From the NCBI RefSeq assembly GCF_001457615.1, contig NZ_LN831024.1, positions 1,710,001 to 1,742,000 of the forward strand: a stretch of 32,000 bases of DNA. The letters are read 5' to 3'. The translations under genes were made by a program, and so were the position numbers. The notes below the pieces were generated by a model. That model ran no database searches, was not told the origin of the DNA, and saw only the letters and a list, made by a program, of their open reading frames with translations. Origin of the DNA: Pseudomonas aeruginosa (GTDB lineage Bacteria; Pseudomonadota; Gammaproteobacteria; Pseudomonadales; Pseudomonadaceae). Of this stretch, positions 1-19,000 are shown piece by piece. Position 1 is the first letter of the stretch. Every line of letters begins with the position of its first letter.

Positions 1-2375
1 ACGCGGTCGGTCAGATCACCCGCGTCACCCGTGGCGACGGCAGCTGGCTGAGCTACGAATACGACGACGCACGGCGCCTGGTAGCGATCGGCAACAACCT
101 CGGCGAACGCCTCGAATACGACGTCGACACCAAGGGCAATCGCACCGCCCAGCGCATCAAGGACGCCAGCGGCAGCCTGGTGCGCCAGCAGCAATGGGCC
201 TACGACGAGCTTGGCCGGCTGCTCCGTGCGGTCGGCGCCGGCGGCCAGACACGCAGCTTCGCCTACGACCTCAACGACAATCCGGTCGGCGAAACCAACC
301 CGCGCCAGTTCGCCCACAGCCAGGCCTTCGATGCCCTCGACCGGCTGGTCGGCCAGAGCGATCCCCTCGGCGGCAAGACCCGACTCGCCTACGACGCCCA
401 GGACAACCTCACCGAGGTCAAGGACCCGCGCGGTGTCACCACCCGCTACGAATACGACGGCCTCGGCAACCTGACCCGACTGGTCAGCCCGGACAGCGGC
501 ACCACCACCTTCGAGCACGACGCCGCCGGCAACGTCATCCGCCGCACCGACGCTCGCGGTGCGGTCACCGAGTATCGCTACGACGCCCTCAATCGGCTGG
601 TCGAGCGCCGCTCGCCGAGCGACCCGAGCCTCGACGTACAGTACCGCTACGACCTCACCGCCGACGGCAACAAGGGCATCGGCCGCCTGGGCGCCATCGA
701 TGGCGCTCGCGACAGCCTGGTGTACCGCTACGACGAGCGCGGCAACCTGGTCGAGCAGGTGCGCAGCATCCGCCTCGACCAGCAGACCCTGCTCGACCGC
801 GTGACCTACCGCTACGACGCGGCCAACCAACTGCTGGAGATCGGCTACCCCTCCGGCCTCGCCATCGGCTACCCGCGCAACGCCGGCGGCCAGGTCGCCA
901 GCGTGACCCTGGCAGTGGGCGACAAGGCGCCGAGCCCCCTGGTCGGGCAGATCGCCTACCTGCCCTTCGGCCCGCTGCAGCGCCTGACCTGGGGCAACGG
1001 CATCGCCCTCAGCCGCGAGTACGACCAGGACTACCAACTGCTGCGGCAGAAGGTCGGCCCCTGGCAGAGCGACTACCAGCACGATGCCAATGGCAATATC
1101 CAGCAGCACCGCCATAGCCTCTGGGGCACCCTGGACTACCAGTACGACCCGCTGGACCGCCTGACCGAGGAACGCGGCGTCCAGGGCGGGCGCAGCTATG
1201 CCTACGACGCGGTCGGCAACCGCACCCAACGCAGCGACAACCCCGCCTCAGGCGGCACCGCCAGCAGCCAGGACTACCAGTACGCGCCCGACAGCAACCG
1301 ATTGACCGCCATCGGCGCGCAAGCGGTGACCAGCGACGCCGCCGGCAACCTCACCCAGGACCGCGCCGCGCGCAAACTGGCCTACGACGCCCAGGGCCGC
1401 CTGCAAAGCGTCAGCCTCGACGGCCAGCAGGTCGCCGAATACCGCTACAACGCCCTCGGCCAGCGCATCGTCAAGCTCACCCCCGAGAGCGTCACCACCT
1501 ACCTCTACGGTCCCGACGGCCAATTGCTCGGCGAAGCCGAACACGACGGCAGCGGCCGGAAACTGCGAGCCCAGTACTACCTGTGGCTGGACAGCCTGCC
1601 GCTGGCCACCATCGACGCCGACTACGACGCCCAGGGCAAGGTCGGCAACCCGACCCTGCTCTACCTCCATGGCGACCACCTCGACACCCCGCGCCTGGCC
1701 ACCGACGCCAGCGGCCAGATCGCCTGGCAGTGGCAGTCCGACGCCTTCGGCCGCGGCGAAGCGCTGAGCCAGGGCAGCACCCAGGTCAACCTGCGCTTCC
1801 CCGGGCAGTACTACGATGCGGAGAGCGGGCTGCACTACAACTACTTCCGCGACTATGATCCGGAGACTGGGCGGTATGTGGAGAGTGATCCGATTGGACT
1901 AAGTGGGGGAGTGAACACATACGGATATGTACAGGGAGCCCCCCTCAACCGTATTGATCCTTTAGGTCTAGCAGCAATAGAGATTGATATTCCTAAATCA
2001 GCATACGATTGGATACCCGAAAATATTCGATTACCTGCGGGAAGACTGTTAGGGGGAGCATTGCTGGTGGCTAGTATTTCCGGAGCTACGCCACAAGCTG
2101 ACAGCGATACAAAAGAGCAAAACTGCCCAAAAGACTGCCCGCCGTGCAAGACAATTAGCGGCAGGATCATTCCTGTTGGAACCTTGGGCTATAGACCATT
2201 AGACATTATTCCAGACGACGAAATGCAACACGGGGTTTATGGATCTCATCACAACATGTTTGTTGCCAATCAGAACCCCAACAATTGCCGATGCTTCTGG
2301 CAGAAGAAAAACTACGTATTAAAACCTGAGCAGCTTCCGAAAAACGCAGTTCCAGTAGAGCCGTTTATAAACTGA
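1..2375 (+). CDS. Rhs/YD-repeat polymorphic toxin, 5'-partial (reading frame open from nt 3; N-terminus lies outside the window)
   Basis: The ORF-track entry 180..2375 stays open upstream to the window edge in the same frame (AVGQITRVTRGDGSWLSYEYDDARRL...). It has many YD repeats (YDxxGNL/RxxDxxG). The end of the Rhs core is canonical: RFPGQYYDAESGLHYNYFRDYDPETGRYVESDPIGLSGGVNTYGYVQGAPLNRIDPLGL. Confidence 0.9.
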   Translation, partial: AVGQITRVTRGDGSWLSYEYDDARRLVAIGNNLGERLEYDVDTKGNRTAQRIKDASGSLVRQQQWAYDELGRLLRAVGAGGQTRSFAYDLNDNPVGETNPRQFAHSQAFDALDRLVGQSDPLGGKTRLAYDAQDNLTEVKDPRGVTTRYEYDGLGNLTRLVSPDSGTTTFEHDAAGNVIRRTDARGAVTEYRYDALNRLVERRSPSDPSLDVQYRYDLTADGNKGIGRLGAIDGARDSLVYRYDERGNLVEQVRSIRLDQQTLLDRVTYRYDAANQLLEIGYPSGLAIGYPRNAGGQVASVTLAVGDKAPSPLVGQIAYLPFGPLQRLTWGNGIALSREYDQDYQLLRQKVGPWQSDYQHDANGNIQQHRHSLWGTLDYQYDPLDRLTEERGVQGGRSYAYDAVGNRTQRSDNPASGGTASSQDYQYAPDSNRLTAIGAQAVTSDAAGNLTQDRAARKLAYDAQGRLQSVSLDGQQVAEYRYNALGQRIVKLTPESVTTYLYGPDGQLLGEAEHDGSGRKLRAQYYLWLDSLPLATIDADYDAQGKVGNPTLLYLHGDHLDTPRLATDASGQIAWQWQSDAFGRGEALSQGSTQVNLRFPGQYYDAESGLHYNYFRDYDPETGRYVESDPIGLSGGVNTYGYVQGAPLNRIDPLGLAAIEIDIPKSAYDWIPENIRLPAGRLLGGALLVASISGATPQADSDTKEQNCPKDCPPCKTISGRIIPVGTLGYRPLDIIPDDEMQHGVYGSHHNMFVANQNPNNCRCFWQKKNYVLKPEQLPKNAVPVEPFIN
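1971..2372 (+). other. Rhs C-terminal variable toxin domain (134 aa) following the DPLGL motif; HNH/Endonuclease-VII-like by motif
   Basis: DPLGL is encoded at 1956..1970. Downstream comes a hydrophobic linker (AGRLLGGALLVASISGA), then CPKDCPPC ... YGSHHNMFVANQNPNNCRC. That is Cys pairs flanking an HH-N-N core, as in zinc-stabilised beta-beta-alpha-Me nucleases. The composition is AT-richer than the core. Confidence 0.5.
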
Positions 2376-2383
2376 GGTTACTC

Positions 2384-2623
2384 ATGAGATATTCAAATGG
2401 AAAAAAAGTAGAGCTGGGAGACAAAATTGATCTTGGCGACGGAGATACAGCTATAATTGTCGGAATCATTGATGAGAATCTCTACTCAGAAGAATACCCC
2501 AAAAGTGATTGGGAATACTTAAAATCAGGACTATTGATGCTCACAAGAGACTCAACACTACTCCACTACCCAAAAATAGAAGACGAGATAAAACTAATAA
2601 GCAGAAAAAATCAAGTAAATTGA
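2384..2623 (+). CDS. putative cognate immunity protein of the Rhs toxin (79 aa, acidic, no recognised family)
   Basis: It starts 8 nt after the rhs stop, with GAGG 5 nt upstream of the ATG. It is on the same strand and very AT-rich (about 38 percent GC in a hand-counted 60-nt line). This position and size are canonical for Rhs immunity genes. Confidence 0.6.
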   Translation: MRYSNGKKVELGDKIDLGDGDTAIIVGIIDENLYSEEYPKSDWEYLKSGLLMLTRDSTLLHYPKIEDEIKLISRKNQVN

Positions 2624-2773
2624 AGGTCTCCAACCATCTTTAAGACCAACTTAAACCTTGTCGCATTCCAGATGGTGTCTTTGATGCTAATTACGGCGAG
2701 CTTGCAAGCATGCTGGCAGGCTTAGTTAAGTCAAACCTCGATATCGAACTGGGGGAGCTGTGGCGCCGGCCCG

Positions 2774-2788
2774 GTCCCCTTTATGGTC
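2774..2788. repeat. 15-bp perfect direct repeat, copy 1 (GTCCCCTTTATGGTC), spanning the tRNA 5' flank and its first nucleotides
   Basis: Identical 15-mer at 3314..3328. With one gap the match extends to 18/19 (..GTC[C]GTA). Confidence 0.8.
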
Positions 2789-2860
2789 CGTAGCTCAATT
2801 GGTTAGAGCATCCCCCTCCTAAGGGGAAGGTTGGAGGTTCGACCCCTCTCCGGGACGCCA
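2784..2860 (+). tRNA. tRNA-Arg (anticodon CCT) with encoded CCA; the 5' acceptor strand does not match the 3' strand
   Basis: D arm GCTC 2793-2796 / GAGC 2806-2809. Anticodon stem TCCCC/GGGGA with loop CTCCTAA (CCT at 2818-2820). Variable loop AGGTT. T arm GGAGG-TTCGACC-CCTCT. 3' acceptor CCGGGAC, G73, CCA ending at 2860. The 5' acceptor 2784-2790 is TGGTCCG, whereas GTCCCGG would be needed for pairing. Confidence 0.8.
2844..2860. repeat. 17-bp direct repeat, copy 1 (tRNA 3' end CCCTCTCCGGGACGCCA), att-like
   Basis: 15/17 identical copy at 4885..4901 (CCCTCTTCGGGACGCTA) in the same orientation. Confidence 0.6.
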
Positions 2861-2910
2861 TTTCATGCTCTGCTCCAGCTTCCCTCGCCGCTTCGACAGT
2901 CCGCTTGCCG

Positions 2911-3136
2911 TCACTTTCTCCGATAGCTTTTCTTGCCGCCCGGCGTCAGGCAGTACACCCCTCCGCGCGGGCCCGTGCAGAACGAGCCGCTGCCACAGGC
3001 ACAGCCCTGCGTCGTGCCTTGCAGACGCTGTACGGCGGGTTGTCCGGTACCTCCGCCGGCGTTGCCGAAGTAGGCCGCGCAACTGCGCTTCGAGGCGCTG
3101 ATGGAGCCGTCGTTGCAGAGGAAGATATCGCAGAGA
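2911..3136 (-). pseudogene. 3' fragment of a GC-rich Cys-rich small-protein gene, interrupted at its 5' side by the MITE-like element
   Basis: The minus-strand frame reads LCDIFLCNDGSISASKRSCAAYFGNAGGGTGQPAVQRLQGTTQGCACGSGSFCTGPRGGVYCLTPGGKKSYRRK*. The first 16 codons of ORF-track entry 2911..3186 are encoded by the inverted-repeat element, so they are not native. Confidence 0.35.
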
Positions 3137-3320
3137 AAAGGGGACAGATTTATTTTTACTACTCTAATTTCAGCGACTGCGCCCACGCTGAACTACTCAA
3201 AGCAAATAACTCGCTAAACCATGCGCCCTTGCCTAGGCATCGCGAAATTCCTTTACGGCATCTGAACTGGAGTCTCCATGCTAGAAAAATTAGAGTGGAG
3301 AAAATAAATCTGTCCCCTTT
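3137..3320. mobile_element. MITE-like nonautonomous element, 184 bp, about 34-bp imperfect terminal inverted repeats, no coding capacity
   Basis: The left end is AAAGGGGACAGATTTATTTTTACTACTCTAATTT (from 3137). The reverse complement of the right end is AAAGGGGACAGATTTATTTTCTCCACTCTAATTT (ending at 3320). They match at 30 of 34 positions. The interior is AT-rich and has no ORF. Confidence 0.55.
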
Positions 3321-3328
3321 ATGGTCGT
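3314..3328. repeat. 15-bp perfect direct repeat, copy 2 (GTCCCCTTTATGGTC), spanning the MITE right terminus and its flank
   Basis: Identical to 2774..2788. Confidence 0.8.
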
Positions 3329-3549
3329 ATGAGGAATGTTCGGGTGGAAGCGTTAAGATCACTAGCGCCGGGGCAGAATCTCTGACAGTACCTATGCGAC
3401 CTACACCAATACTGATGGCACAACCCTGAACCTAACCGCAGGACGGTACGCCGAGCTTTGAAGCATGAACAGCTGGATCCTGAAGTGAATCGTAGCCACA
3501 GAGATGTGGCTATCGGCTACAATCGGCGCCTGTCAGTCTGGAGGATGCC

Positions 3550-4803
3550 ATGTACGCGATGCTCACCGGTGCAACCCTGCTCATATTTGCAGTGGCTGCG
3601 AGGCTTCTAGCGCGTAGCGCCATACACCCCTCGGTCGCTATGCCTATCACCTGGGGGCTAGGTCTCATCGGTGTCAGTCTAGCATCGTTGATAGGGTTCT
3701 ACCGTGTCGAGTCTGATGCACTGCTAATTTTTCTGTTTGGTGTGATGTCATTCTCCCTCTCCGCTGGGTGTTTCTCGTTTCTTTACAACGGTTACTTTCG
3801 TGCGCCGAGTTCAAATTTTCTGTTCGATAGCGAACTTCGGACCAGGGCGCTCGTAATCTTTTTCTGCTTGGCGCACATCGTATTTCTTACGGTAATTTAT
3901 AGAGACTTGTCTTCTATAGCTCCAACACTGCGCGAGGCTGCGTATATGGCGCGCGCCCAGTCTGTATCCGGTGAGCCCGTTTTAAGCTCGCTCTCAATGA
4001 ACTATTTACAGCTTGGACAGACCGTCATACCACTTGTGGTTTTACTATACTTGCGCGGTAAGTGTGGAGTCCTAGGCTTCTTGGCTATATCTGTTCCATG
4101 GATGGGGGTTATCTTGCTCGCAAGTGGTCGAGCATCACTTATGCAGATGCTTGTCGGGTTATTCTTTATCTACATACTTGTCAAGGGGAGTCCTTCTTTA
4201 AAAAGCCTTCTTGTAATAGGTTTGGCAATGTTTTTAGTTATTGCTGTTGGCGCTGTCGCTACATCCAAGATTCAATTTCATGAAGGTGATGGGATCTCGA
4301 CTCTTTTCATAGAGCTCTATCGTCATGTGGCGGGATATGCTTTGCAAGGGCCTGTTCTCTTCGATAGGTACTATCAGGGCTCAATACATTTAGAGCCATA
4401 TTGGTCGCCGCTAAATGGCTTTTGCAGCATATTGGCTACAGTTGGTCTCTGCCAGAAACCCCCTCTTCATCTTGACTTCTATGAGTATGCGCCTGGTGAA
4501 CTCGGCAACGTTTACTCGATGTTCTTCTCAATGTATCCGCACTATGGCGCTTTGGGCGTAATAGGAGTGATGGCTCTGTATGGAATGCTTTGCTCTTATG
4601 CATACTGTAAAGCGAAGAAAGGTAGCCTATACTTTACAGTCCTTTCCTCGTACCTCTTTTCTGCCATTGTCTTTTCCCTGTTCAGTGACCAGATATCCAC
4701 CTCCTGGTGGTTCTACGTCAAGATGACAATAATTCTTGGAATTCTGTGCTTCGTATTCAGGCGAGATCGAATGTTCGTGATCCGCCTTCCACAAGCTGGG
4801 TAA
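3550..4803 (+). CDS. Wzy-like oligosaccharide repeat-unit (O-antigen) polymerase, polytopic membrane protein (417 aa)
   Basis: Strong RBS (GGAGGA) 4 nt before the ATG. There are about 10-12 hydrophobic segments and a large hydrophilic loop near residues 250-310 (HEGDGISTLFIELYRHVAGYALQGPVLFDRYYQGS...). An ASGRASLMQ segment is typical of Wzy/O-antigen-ligase-type proteins. GC is about 45 percent by hand count, against about 67 percent in the flanking core. Confidence 0.6.
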   Translation: MYAMLTGATLLIFAVAARLLARSAIHPSVAMPITWGLGLIGVSLASLIGFYRVESDALLIFLFGVMSFSLSAGCFSFLYNGYFRAPSSNFLFDSELRTRALVIFFCLAHIVFLTVIYRDLSSIAPTLREAAYMARAQSVSGEPVLSSLSMNYLQLGQTVIPLVVLLYLRGKCGVLGFLAISVPWMGVILLASGRASLMQMLVGLFFIYILVKGSPSLKSLLVIGLAMFLVIAVGAVATSKIQFHEGDGISTLFIELYRHVAGYALQGPVLFDRYYQGSIHLEPYWSPLNGFCSILATVGLCQKPPLHLDFYEYAPGELGNVYSMFFSMYPHYGALGVIGVMALYGMLCSYAYCKAKKGSLYFTVLSSYLFSAIVFSLFSDQISTSWWFYVKMTIILGILCFVFRRDRMFVIRLPQAG

Positions 4804-4840
4804 TCATCAGTGGTTTGTATTGTGCTGTATATGGCTTTCG

Positions 4841-5281
4841 TTAGAAATCCCTCTCAAACTCCCTAGCATCTGCATCAATGGCGTCCCTCTTCGGGACGCT
4901 ATGTGCCAAACTTCCGTCGTTCCGCGTTGCAGGAAAGAATATCTCCATACCATATCTCGTATGCATATGCGCCAACTCCATAAGGAGAGAAATTATTTGG
5001 CAATGAGCTAATATTCGAGTGAATTTCATGCTTCTTGCCGTTAATGTGTAGACAGTATTTATTACCTGGGCTCTACCTTGGGGACTCCCCGCATCGCTCC
5101 TGATGTCTCTGAGCTTGTTTTCACCTCTTGGGATTGCCTTGCCGCCTGTCTTCGTCACCATCGGGGCGCGGCAAGCGACTGTTTCCAGTGCCTGACTGTG
5201 TAGAATTCCCATAGAGGCTTGGTACGTCGCCCAGAAGGCTGGATGCTTCGGATGCCGTTTGCATACGCTTGTCACTTCCAT
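4841..5281 (-). CDS. hypothetical protein (146 aa), no recognisable family; its 3' end crosses the att-like repeat
   Basis: ORF of intermediate GC, convergent with the wzy-like gene. Its start codon lies 25 nt from the amiE -35 box. No motif was recognised. Confidence 0.35.
   Translation of the reverse strand: MEVTSVCKRHPKHPAFWATYQASMGILHSQALETVACRAPMVTKTGGKAIPRGENKLRDIRSDAGSPQGRAQVINTVYTLTARSMKFTRILAHCQIISLLMELAHMHTRYGMEIFFPATRNDGSLAHSVPKRDAIDADAREFERDF
4885..4901. repeat. 17-bp direct repeat, copy 2 (CCCTCTTCGGGACGCTA), a degenerate copy of the tRNA-Arg 3' end; candidate attR
   Basis: 15/17 match to 2844..2860. It also sits inside a 7-bp-stem palindrome (GCGTCCC tcttc GGGACGC, 4881..4899) 78 nt after the wzy-like stop. 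Confidence 0.55.
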
Positions 5282-5305
5282 GTTTTACATAACGATACAT
5301 GAACC

Positions 5306-5334
5306 TTGACAGCTCCTTCCGACGGGGCTTATAA
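5306..5334 (+). promoter_or_regulatory. amiE sigma70-type promoter (TTGACA-N17-TTATAA)
   Basis: TTGACA at 5306-5311, a 17-nt spacer, then TTATAA at 5329-5334. It lies about 145 nt upstream of the amiE ATG and is followed by the leader. Confidence 0.6.
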
Positions 5335-5407
5335 GTGGCGCCATCAGGTCGTGCGCATCAGCGTCGATGTCGCGGGACCGAACCTAACGCATACGCACAG
5401 AGCAAAT

Positions 5408-5442
5408 GGGCTCTCCCGGGGTTACCCGGGAGGGCCTTTTTT
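5408..5442 (+). terminator. rho-independent terminator in the amiE leader (target of AmiR antitermination)
   Basis: GGGCTCTCCCGGG-GTTA-CCCGGGAGGGCC followed by TTTTTT. It lies between the promoter and the amiE RBS, matching the published ami operon control logic. Confidence 0.8.
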
Positions 5443-5458
5443 CGTCCCGAAAAAATAA

Positions 5459-6517
<1,059 letters not shown>

Positions 6518-6599: not shown

Positions 6600-9485
<2,886 letters not shown>

Positions 9486-10490: not shown

Positions 10491-10914
10491 GTCTGGCGCG
10501 CGGTATGGCGTGTCGGGAGAAATCCGCAGTCCTTGGCGGCAGGCGATGCGCAGGCAGGAAGGACGCATCGTTCAGCCAATCTACGCCGTCGACCGGGCGC
10601 GACCACTGCTAGAGTTCGCAGGAGGGCTACAGGGGTGTCCTGGCACTGGCGATGCATGGCCCGGTGCCGGACTGCGGCAGCGGCCTGCCGTGCCGGCTCG
10701 TTCGATTGTTACGCTGTCTGTAACGATCTATTGCCGATGCCGGCAGGCCAGGGGCGATTGTCTCGAAATATACTGCGTCACCTGGTCGCCGCAGCGGCGA
10801 CGGCTACCCACTGGCCGTCGTCCGGGTCGCCGGTTCCATCCCGGCCGCGCCAACCCCCGCATTCAGGCCCCGCTGCGGCGACTGCATTCCCGCTGGATTC
10901 GAGGCTCGTACCCT

Positions 10915-18388: not shown

Positions 18389-19000
18389 ATGAGTCCGACG
18401 CTTTCCCTTCACCTGATGGTGCGCAACCTGCCGCCCGGGCAGCGGCGGCCGAAGATCGCCCAGGCCATCGGCGAGGAGAGCGCGGGACGCTTGCAGCGGG
18501 TATTGCTGGAACGCGCCCTGCGCCTGCCCGATCGCGGTTTCAGCGCCCGCATCCTCTGGTTCGACGACGATCTGGACAGCGATCTGCAGGCGCTGGCGGT
18601 GGCATTGGGCTGGAGCCTGATGAGCCAGCCGGCCGGCGACCCCGGCGAGCGCATGCGGCGTATCGCGGCGCTGGGGTTGGCGGAAAGCGAGGCGGTACTG
18701 CTGATTCGCCACGACTGCCCGGTGCTGGACGGCGACTACCTGGAAGCGGCCTGCACCGCCCTGGGCCGCCACCAGGCGGTGCTGGGGCCGGTGGAGCGGG
18801 GCGGCTACGCGCTGCTCGGCCTGACCCGGGTCGACCCGCTGTTGTTCGAGTCGATGCCCTGGGGCGGAGACCGCCTGCTGGCGCTCACCTGCGAGCGTCT
18901 CCGGCAACTGGGCTGGGAGCATCACCTGTTGCCGGCGCTCTGGGACGTCGACCGTCCCGAGGACCTGCCGCGCCTGGCGGCGCTGGGGCTGGTCCTGTGA
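18389..19000 (+). CDS. DUF2064 / TIGR04282-like glycosyltransferase-fold protein (203 aa)
   Basis: GGAGAGG RBS. The motifs IRHDCPVLD and GGYALLGL ... MPWGGDRLL are typical of this family, from memory. Confidence 0.65.
   Translation: MSPTLSLHLMVRNLPPGQRRPKIAQAIGEESAGRLQRVLLERALRLPDRGFSARILWFDDDLDSDLQALAVALGWSLMSQPAGDPGERMRRIAALGLAESEAVLLIRHDCPVLDGDYLEAACTALGRHQAVLGPVERGGYALLGLTRVDPLLFESMPWGGDRLLALTCERLRQLGWEHHLLPALWDVDRPEDLPRLAALGLVL

Follow-up and report, generated by a model that had tools for sequence, protein, structure and literature searches.

Rhs polymorphic toxins combine a shell of YD repeats and a core ending in a DPxGL motif with a short variable tip of deviant base composition and an adjoining immunity gene; unrelated tips may be found on one core, with exchange inside the conserved core end. 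Examples from Pseudomonas aeruginosa are RhsP2, which bears an ADP-ribosyltransferase tip, Tse5, with a pore-forming tip, and RhsT, with an Ntox43 tip. In the model of C-terminal displacement (Jackson et al. 2009, PMC2935791), tips move with core fragments of variable length that enter by homologous recombination in the core, and orphan tips and core fragments lie downstream. The analysis reported here concerns an rhs gene at the left edge of a stretch of 32,000 nucleotides (nt) from P. aeruginosa (contig NZ_LN831024.1, positions 1,710,001-1,742,000), referred to below as the window, whose own numbering is used for all coordinates; residues of the tip are counted from the tip start. The locus has the layout of Rhs polymorphic toxins throughout, including unrelated tips on one core and exchange inside the core end. 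It differs from that of rhsP2 (the PA14_43100-equivalent locus; PMC11751169) in lying upstream of amiE beside a tRNA-Arg gene, and literature searches yielded no description of a P. aeruginosa rhs gene at this amiE-proximal locus. While its architecture and the evolutionary process behind it are textbook Rhs biology, the toxin domain at its end and the immunity partner are families without any database description.

Two nested junctions in the rhs core end

The rhs open reading frame (ORF) is open at the left edge of the window, runs in frame from nt 3 and stops at 2373-2375 (listed as ORF 180..2375). Its translation matches YD/Rhs repeats (Pfam RHS_repeat, E=9.4e-52, 11 stretches; NCBIfam YD_repeat_2x, E=7e-45; RHS_core also matched) and, over residues 581-656 of 790, corresponding to nt 1743-1970, the Rhs-associated core domain (NCBIfam TIGR03696 Rhs_assc_core, E=1.4e-23, 83.2 bits against a cut-off of 32.5). 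The aspartyl autoprotease motif PxxxxDPxGL is present, with both a DPIGL and a DPLGL string in the translation. The tip that follows comprises 134 amino acids (aa; 1971..2372) and reads ...CPKDCPPC...GVYGSHHNMFVANQNPNNCRC..., with a hydrophobic stretch, LPAGRLLGGALLVASISGA, encoded at nt 2031-2087. A small ORF (2384..2623) begins with an ATG 8 nt past the toxin stop and is preceded by GAGG 4 nt upstream of this ATG.

The base composition changes sharply towards the end of the core. In 150-nt windows, the G+C fraction is 0.65-0.75 up to about nt 1800, 0.41-0.52 over 1851-2400 and 0.35-0.40 in the small ORF, and it returns to at least 0.6 from about nt 2750. The G+C fraction at third codon positions (GC3) is 0.92 in the core, 0.50 at 1854-1898, 0.375 at 1899-1970, 0.44 in the tip and 0.32 in the downstream ORF. 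Its maximum-likelihood change point, from 0.92 to 0.43, falls at nt 1854, 39 codons ahead of the end of the DPLGL motif. Codons ending in G or C number 565 of 617 before this point versus 75 of 173 after it (Fisher p=1.4e-39), which excludes chance as a cause of the switch. The last 39 core codons include 16 of this kind, the minimum in any 39-codon window within the core being 32. Of the 55 arginine codons of the core none is AGA or AGG, and these two triplets supply 6 of 8 in the cassette (3 of 5 within the tip, all 3 in the downstream ORF). An earlier note on this DNA, made from its letters, had described a drop in composition from about nt 1855, some 100 nt before DPLGL, with the last 35 or so core codons in foreign usage. 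The change point and the 39 codons measured here bear this out, and the note's counts (40/60 G+C in the first line, 28/60 at 2161-2220), its position for DPLGL, its tip length and the tip letters that it quoted are all exact.

Comparison with other alleles on the same core places a further boundary close to the compositional one. A search with the core end retrieved a locus from another P. aeruginosa genome (L045, P0206) which is 97.5% identical over window positions 1-1930 and carries an unrelated tip, with a weak match to Ntox16 (E=2e-05) and an ankyrin-repeat gene next to it. In a three-way alignment, L045 agrees with the window through nt 1897 (the DPIG of DPIGL), the AT-richer stretch 1854-1897 included, and the first mismatch is at 1898. 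Since 1854-1897 is common to both alleles, position 1854 is not the junction between them as they exist today. The composition boundary (1854) and the allele boundary (1898) are thus separate, nested junctions 44 nt apart, which implies no fewer than two exchanges inside this conserved region. Two further P. aeruginosa loci occupy the same chromosomal site, likewise upstream of amiE. In L002 the tip allele is the one seen in the window (98.8% identity); its linker is frameshifted and the immunity gene is intact. L001 bears another member of the toxin family (57% identity) and an immunity gene of its own, this tip being joined to core position ~127 by a 195-bp element resembling a miniature inverted-repeat transposable element (MITE). 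In other GC-rich hosts of the toxin family the GC3 change point is variable within the last 20-60 core codons, and in Neisseria and Pasteurellaceae it coincides with the linker/toxin boundary. Such variable change points fit the model in which tips travel with core fragments of differing length (PMC2935791), so that the compositional scar is genuine, although ordinary for Rhs loci.

Together, these data support horizontal acquisition of the cassette 1854-2640, which would have been grafted onto a native P. aeruginosa core by homologous exchange in the core end. The earlier note had proposed tip replacement, with the composition switch at about 1855 as its scar. The imported cassette and a boundary inside the core end stand, and mapping of the alleles shows that tips do differ on the same core (L045, L001); the refinement is that there are two nested junctions. 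No near-identical donor was found by BLASTN of the cassette against all fetched loci, the best matches being 70-78% identical and from other pseudomonads. A vertically inherited gene whose core end and tip are subject to local selection or mutation bias would account for the sharing of 1854-1897 by two alleles with different tips, a stretch that is hence not tip-specific. Against this, GC3 halves across a few codons; AGA, AGG and other A/T-ending codons missing from the core start abruptly; unrelated tips occur on a 97.5% identical core; members of this toxin family ride on Rhs, VgrG and PAAR scaffolds that are unrelated and come from four proteobacterial classes; and arrays of additional core-end fragments occur downstream in a locus from Iodobacter (L015) and one from Pseudomonas sp. 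TTU2014-080ASC (L003). An origin by such bias is therefore extremely improbable.

Arrays of the kind expected from C-terminal displacement (PMC2935791) occur in these last two loci and not in the window: tblastn found no displaced orphan tip, that is no second core end and no second toxin or immunity copy, in either the window or L045. In L015, core-end copies lie at 7356-7530, 9067-9177 and 10563-10673, downstream of an intact tip that ends at 6240, suggesting the kind of orphan-tip array that the displacement model leads one to expect. In L003 a core-end copy is located at 3698-3840, upstream of a tip starting near 5775. Further irregularities were noted among P. aeruginosa copies of this rhs gene. 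Frameshifts are present in several assemblies, in the tip linker of L002 (1-628) and around nt 1800-1900 in P0062, P0213, P0215 and P0305; they may reflect errors of assembly, or true pseudogenes in strains that keep the immunity gene. In L045 the N-terminal portion of rhs (2669-6000) is a mosaic in GC content (0.42-0.65 versus 0.69 in the core) and is split into several ORFs.

A probable C-terminal toxin family and its immunity partner

A search with the tip matched 63 proteins, and family alignments confined the conserved part to its last 87 residues. A profile search over 1.84 billion representatives (clusters at 50% identity, cut-off E<=0.001) extended the family to 307 clusters, 166 of them at 1e-10 or better, with the domain always at the extreme C-terminus. 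Forty-two species-level loci are spread across Gamma-, Beta-, Alpha- and Epsilonproteobacteria, the hosts including Pseudomonas, Burkholderia, Neisseria, Aggregatibacter, Xanthomonas, Enterobacter and environmental metagenome-assembled genomes. Conservation, measured over 85 divergent members, is concentrated on a small set of residues: C59, G91, H93, C108 and W110 are invariant (85/85), G64, R75, A99, Q101, P103, F109 and F132 are conserved in at least 95%, and C56, Y74, D78, N95 and C106 in at least 85%. The long members of the family are Rhs or teneurin-like YD proteins, and relatives carry N-terminal modules in VgrG-DUF6531-Rhs (L009) and PAAR-like-DUF6531-Rhs (L026) arrangements, or a PAAR-like module without an Rhs shell (L044). 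These scaffolds identify the domain as a mobile polymorphic-toxin module linked to type VI secretion.

Gene order across the family supports the small ORF 2384..2623 as the cognate immunity gene. With a hidden Markov model (HMM), a homologue was detected no more than 500 nt downstream of the toxin gene at 43 of 45 loci; of the remaining two, one runs into a contig end and the other has a partial toxin match. The family is visible through this synteny, as a word-indexed search with the immunity protein returned five close relatives only. Its members measure about 76-95 aa and share the consensus MKYxxGxxVxLGDxVxL...GVVVxxID...W.YL..GVMI....GLIHY...D..LI.R. These proteins are acidic (isoelectric point 4.9 for the one in the window, versus 8.4 for its toxin domain) and lack a signal peptide and transmembrane segments. 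The assignment of the two genes as a toxin-immunity pair can be regarded as highly probable.

Neither partner corresponds to a described family. The tip, the domain and the immunity protein match no family in Pfam (2025 copy), NCBIfam (2026), PADLOC or PHROGs, the sole match being a meaningless one of 15 bits to blaTHIN; for the immunity protein, scattered weak matches to small SH3/KOW-like barrels accompany the absence of a Pfam family. Among the toxin-table families of Zhang et al. 2012 (PMC3482391; section 5, parts 2 and 3), none is described with the motif set CxxC...Y/R/D...GxH...Q...CxC, and literature searches retrieved no description of either partner. The tip domain thus differs from catalogued Rhs toxins in belonging to no Pfam or NCBIfam toxin family and to none listed in those parts of the PMC3482391 table.

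Predicted fold and mode of action

Structure prediction with AlphaFold was performed on the full tip with 35 sequences (predicted local distance difference test, pLDDT, 91-97 per 10-residue block from residue 61) and on the trimmed domain with 62 sequences (mean pLDDT 92.7, predicted template modelling score 0.79). Both models have the same all-beta topology around a long hairpin (strands 93-101 and 108-117), with one 3-residue turn as the only helical element. Foldseek searches against the PDB with both models gave best E values of 0.67 and 1.4 with template modelling (TM) scores of at most 0.36, and a search against BFVD with the trimmed model gave a best E of 0.7; overall, no match had E below 0.6 or a TM-score above 0.38. 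Sequence searches of the PDB, with the single sequence and with the profile, gave matches only to ODF3/CFAP (E 0.27) and, with the profile, to HopBF1 (E about 1 over 23 residues), and both were judged to be due to chance. Readings of the domain as HIT-like, deaminase-like, sortase/YkuD-like or as a minimal kinase were dropped on grounds of motif order, domain size and the lack of a fold match.

The two cysteine clusters that the earlier note had seen framing the tip are real. The first, C56xxC59, is situated ahead of the first strand (59-61), and the second, C106xC108, at the turn between the two hairpin strands, so that in the models a knuckle before a strand and a hairpin turn are placed as in a zinc ribbon. 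C59 and C108 are found in all 85 members, C56 in 75 (with four more as CxxxC) and C106 in 79.

The same note had likened the tip to a zinc-stabilised nuclease of the HNH/EndoVII (beta-beta-alpha-Me) fold from the SHH, GHH or AHH clades. Several features do recall such enzymes. A GSHHN...N...N string lies between CxxC and CxC, and EndoVII-type HNH domains have cysteine pairs around the catalytic hairpin (NGO1392-like: CxxC, DH, CxxC, Q; PMC3482391). The likeness to EndoVII-type HNH toxins (NGO1392-like/Tox-SuFu-Nuc, Tox-SHH, Tox-GHH, AHH) extends to a small C-terminal toxin with two cysteine pairs flanking a His-bearing beta-hairpin, and to the combination of basic toxin and acidic immunity protein typical of nuclease-immunity pairs. 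However, no Pfam match of any kind, HNH, Tox-SHH, GHH and AHH included, was obtained at E<=10, whether the query was the tip, the domain or one of 25 family members, and none in NCBIfam. An xHH dyad ([S/G/A]HH), with a His, Asn or Glu further downstream as metal ligand, defines the SHH, GHH and AHH clades ([SG]HH, H pattern; PMC3482391), yet over the 85 members position 94, the second His of "SHH", is Y in 36, H in 30 and L in 9, and position 92 is S in 41, P in 27 and D in 13, so that this hallmark is not a feature of the family; nor is there a conserved His downstream of H93. H93 lies at the start of the first, 9-residue hairpin strand in the models, at the opposite strand end from the His of His-Me fingers, and in neither high-confidence model does an alpha-helix follow the hairpin. 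Finally, no HNH or His-Me finger nuclease appears among the best 50 PDB matches listed by Foldseek. With neither an HMM match nor the fold nor a nuclease neighbour, the HNH/EndoVII reading does not hold up, falls to the refuting condition that the note itself had set, and must be considered very unlikely.

A functional analogy may be drawn with colicin E3. Its rRNase domain measures about 90 aa and its immunity protein Im3 about 80 aa. The tip domain is likewise all-beta and of similar size, with conserved His, Arg and Asp and an acidic immunity protein of about 80 aa; Tox-ColE3 is given as all-beta with conserved R, D, E and H in PMC3482391. The two differ in that Pfam Cytotoxic and Cloacin_immun are unmatched here, that Foldseek gave no PDB match, and that ColE3 has no cysteine pairs.

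The best overall explanation, to which a probability of roughly 60% can be given, is that of an acquired cassette encoding a toxin that is delivered by type VI secretion, acts enzymatically in the cytoplasm and is neutralised by binding of its immunity protein. The Rhs shell would enclose the tip, and autoproteolysis at DPLGL|A would release the 134-aa fragment, which would be delivered by type VI secretion on VgrG-Rhs, PAAR-Rhs or PAAR proteins. After delivery, the linker between cleavage motif and domain may engage the inner membrane and help the domain to reach or cross it. The 87-aa all-beta domain, held by the two cysteine pairs, would then be the toxic module, active in the cytoplasm of the target cell. 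Its functional centre may comprise the hairpin face formed by H93, N95, Y/F97, A99 and Q101 together with R75, D78, Y74 and the C59/C108 pair, C108 and W110 lying opposite. Such an enzyme would use His93 with Arg75, Asp78, Asn95 and Gln101, possibly on nucleic acid, and the acidic 79-aa protein would neutralise it by direct 1:1 binding. From effector-immunity logic, the absence of a signal peptide from the immunity protein, which makes it cytoplasmic, points to the cytoplasm as the site of action. An enzymatic action there is moderately probable, and nucleic acid as the substrate is a tentative suggestion.

Several observations weigh against this explanation. The N-terminus of the rhs gene lies outside the window, so that type VI delivery of its product is deduced from relatives, and the N-terminus in L045 consists of a signal-like peptide and DUF6531, with no PAAR. 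The frameshifted tip of L002 implies that the toxin is not kept in every strain. No sequence or fold relative of known function emerged from Pfam, NCBIfam, PADLOC, PHROGs, PDB and BFVD searches, so that no activity can be assigned. Lastly, C56 and C106 are lost jointly in 6 of the 85 members; as the nearest relative of each of the six is a four-cysteine member, the loss occurred independently in at least three lineages. Such joint loss indicates a pairwise relationship and not one indivisible Zn(Cys)4 site. The pattern could reflect two disulfides, or a dispensable pair beside an essential Cys59/His93/Cys108 centre, and disulfides would suit a periplasmic life better than a cytoplasmic one.

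The cysteine pattern lends itself to a reading in which the domain is stapled by disulfides (C56-C106, C59-C108) and acts in the periplasm or on the envelope, since partners lost only together in at least three lineages, beside an invariant C59 and C108, are what disulfides would lead one to expect. Immunity proteins of envelope-acting type VI effectors are exported, however, and all 43 immunity homologues start with MKY, MRY or MNY and polar residues and have no signal peptide, lipobox or transmembrane segment; the arrangement of CxxC and hairpin turn equally fits a zinc ribbon. A periplasmic action is accordingly improbable.

Another reading centres on the linker. If this Gly/Ala-rich hydrophobic segment were itself the toxic principle, inserting into and depolarising the inner membrane like the C-terminal fragment of Tse5, the domain would be only a scaffold or targeting piece. 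The pore-forming C-terminal fragment of P. aeruginosa Tse5, itself an Rhs protein, offers a precedent (PMC10684867). The linker is unconserved in the family, with a median length of 45 aa and about 30% Gly plus Ala, and in 72% of 104 members it includes a 19-residue window with a mean hydropathy of at least 1.0 (at least 1.6 in 39%); some of these segments resemble glycine zippers, for example GGIGAGVGGVIGGIIGGGGG in P0013. The linker of the window reaches 1.35 in its best 19-aa Kyte-Doolittle window. The hydrophobic stretch after the cleavage site, which had been noted as unusual, is thus not an oddity of this allele. Yet neither sequence nor length of the linker is conserved, and 28% of members have no hydrophobic window. 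Selection is focused on the 87-aa domain, with its five invariant and about 15 near-invariant positions, and it is with the domain that a soluble immunity protein devoid of transmembrane segments co-occurs. Moreover, a similar hydrophobic segment rich in Gly and Ala follows the cleavage site in L045, whose Ntox16-like tip is unrelated, and its presence there suggests a role in delivery and not in toxic activity. A pore formed by the linker is therefore improbable as well; the linker probably assists delivery, either crossing the inner membrane or associating with it.

A bolder and rather doubtful reading would be that the domain founds a toxin class with a new fold, a Cys-stapled all-beta enzyme with an invariant Cys59/His93/Cys108 centre and an activity unlike that of known nuclease, NADase, ADP-ribosyltransferase and deaminase effectors. 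The variable Gly/Ala-rich linker would then be a general means by which Rhs tips insert themselves into the inner membrane and pass through it.

Locus layout and neighbouring elements

Table 1. Features at the 3' end of the rhs gene and directly downstream in the window.
Feature	Position (nt)	Strand	Remarks
rhs core 3' part, YD-repeat shell	3..1853	+	native high-GC codon usage; Pfam and NCBIfam matches; GC3 0.92
Core-end segment YDPETGRYVESDPIG	1854..1897	+	foreign codon usage, GC3 0.50; base-for-base common to L045
Allele-specific end of Rhs-associated core domain, closing with DPLGL (1956-1970)	1898..1970	+	GC3 0.375
Tip linker, 47 aa, unconserved sequence	1971..2111	+	Gly/Ala/Leu-rich hydrophobic stretch at 2031-2087; model pLDDT <50
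Toxin domain, 87 aa + stop	2112..2375	+	unannotated family; profile search, conservation, AlphaFold model
Putative cognate immunity gene, 79 aa	2384..2623	+	synteny by HMM; GC3 0.32
tRNA-Arg(CCT)	2785..2860	+	ARAGORN; Rfam RF00005, 50.6 bits; given as context only

Downstream of the features listed in Table 1, amiE (aliphatic amidase) and the ami operon follow at window positions 5468-6517 and beyond, and the matching regions of L001 and L002 contain CN_hydrolase, AAA ATPase, periplasmic-binding-like (AmiC) and AmiR/ANTAR proteins by Pfam. The rhs locus thus belongs to a variable region that borders the amidase operon. The tRNA-Arg(CCT) gene directly follows the AT-rich cassette and marks its end; the other locus with this tip allele, L002, has it too (1037-1112), and the portions of L001 and L045 that were fetched lack it. 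A second tRNA-Arg (ACG anticodon), called by ARAGORN at 18772-18865 with a length of 94 nt, has no Rfam tRNA match at the gathering threshold and is probably a false positive or an atypical gene.

Relative to L002, which has 208 unrelated bases instead, the window contains a lower-GC insertion of 2.17 kb (3132-5300). The insertion includes an ORF (3550-4803) for an oligosaccharide repeat-unit polymerase (Wzy-like; TIGR04370, E=3e-27), an O-antigen-type polymerase gene which stands between tRNA-Arg and amiE, outside any polysaccharide cluster. A ydcA-like gene on the minus strand (2909-3131) has lost its 5' end to the insertion at 3132, and an intact copy in L002 codes for 112 aa (NCBIfam PRK10040, E=8e-67). 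A MITE-like element spans about 190 bp at 3132-3326; its 34-nt terminal inverted repeats (TIRs), which are 91% complementary, occupy 3137-3170 and 3287-3320. Copies of this element are found in L001 (94-291 and 879-1073), where one of them fuses core position ~127 to the tip remnant and deletes most of rhs, and at least six full or partial copies are densely repeated downstream of rhs in L045 (9127-14846). An exact 15-nt direct repeat, GTCCCCTTTATGGTC, has one copy at 2774-2788, which overlaps tRNA-Arg(CCT) at its 5' end, and another at 3312-3326, which forms the outer end of the MITE-like element; the repeat may represent the remnant of a single TIR or a favoured target.

As a clean natural example of nested exchange junctions in an Rhs core end, the locus helps to define the sites at which tip cassettes recombine. 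If the domain proves to be an ordinary RNase or DNase, a single further annotated family will have been gained. The find is also unsurprising in kind, given that many Rhs tips are still uncharacterised. Rhs tips are nevertheless among the chief sources of new antibacterial activities, and the characterisation of orphan domains of this sort first revealed several effector mechanisms. With a toxin of about 85 aa, an immunity protein of about 80 aa and a set of invariant residues as mutational targets, the pair is small enough for quick genetics, biochemistry and crystallography, and represents a tractable candidate for a new effector activity.

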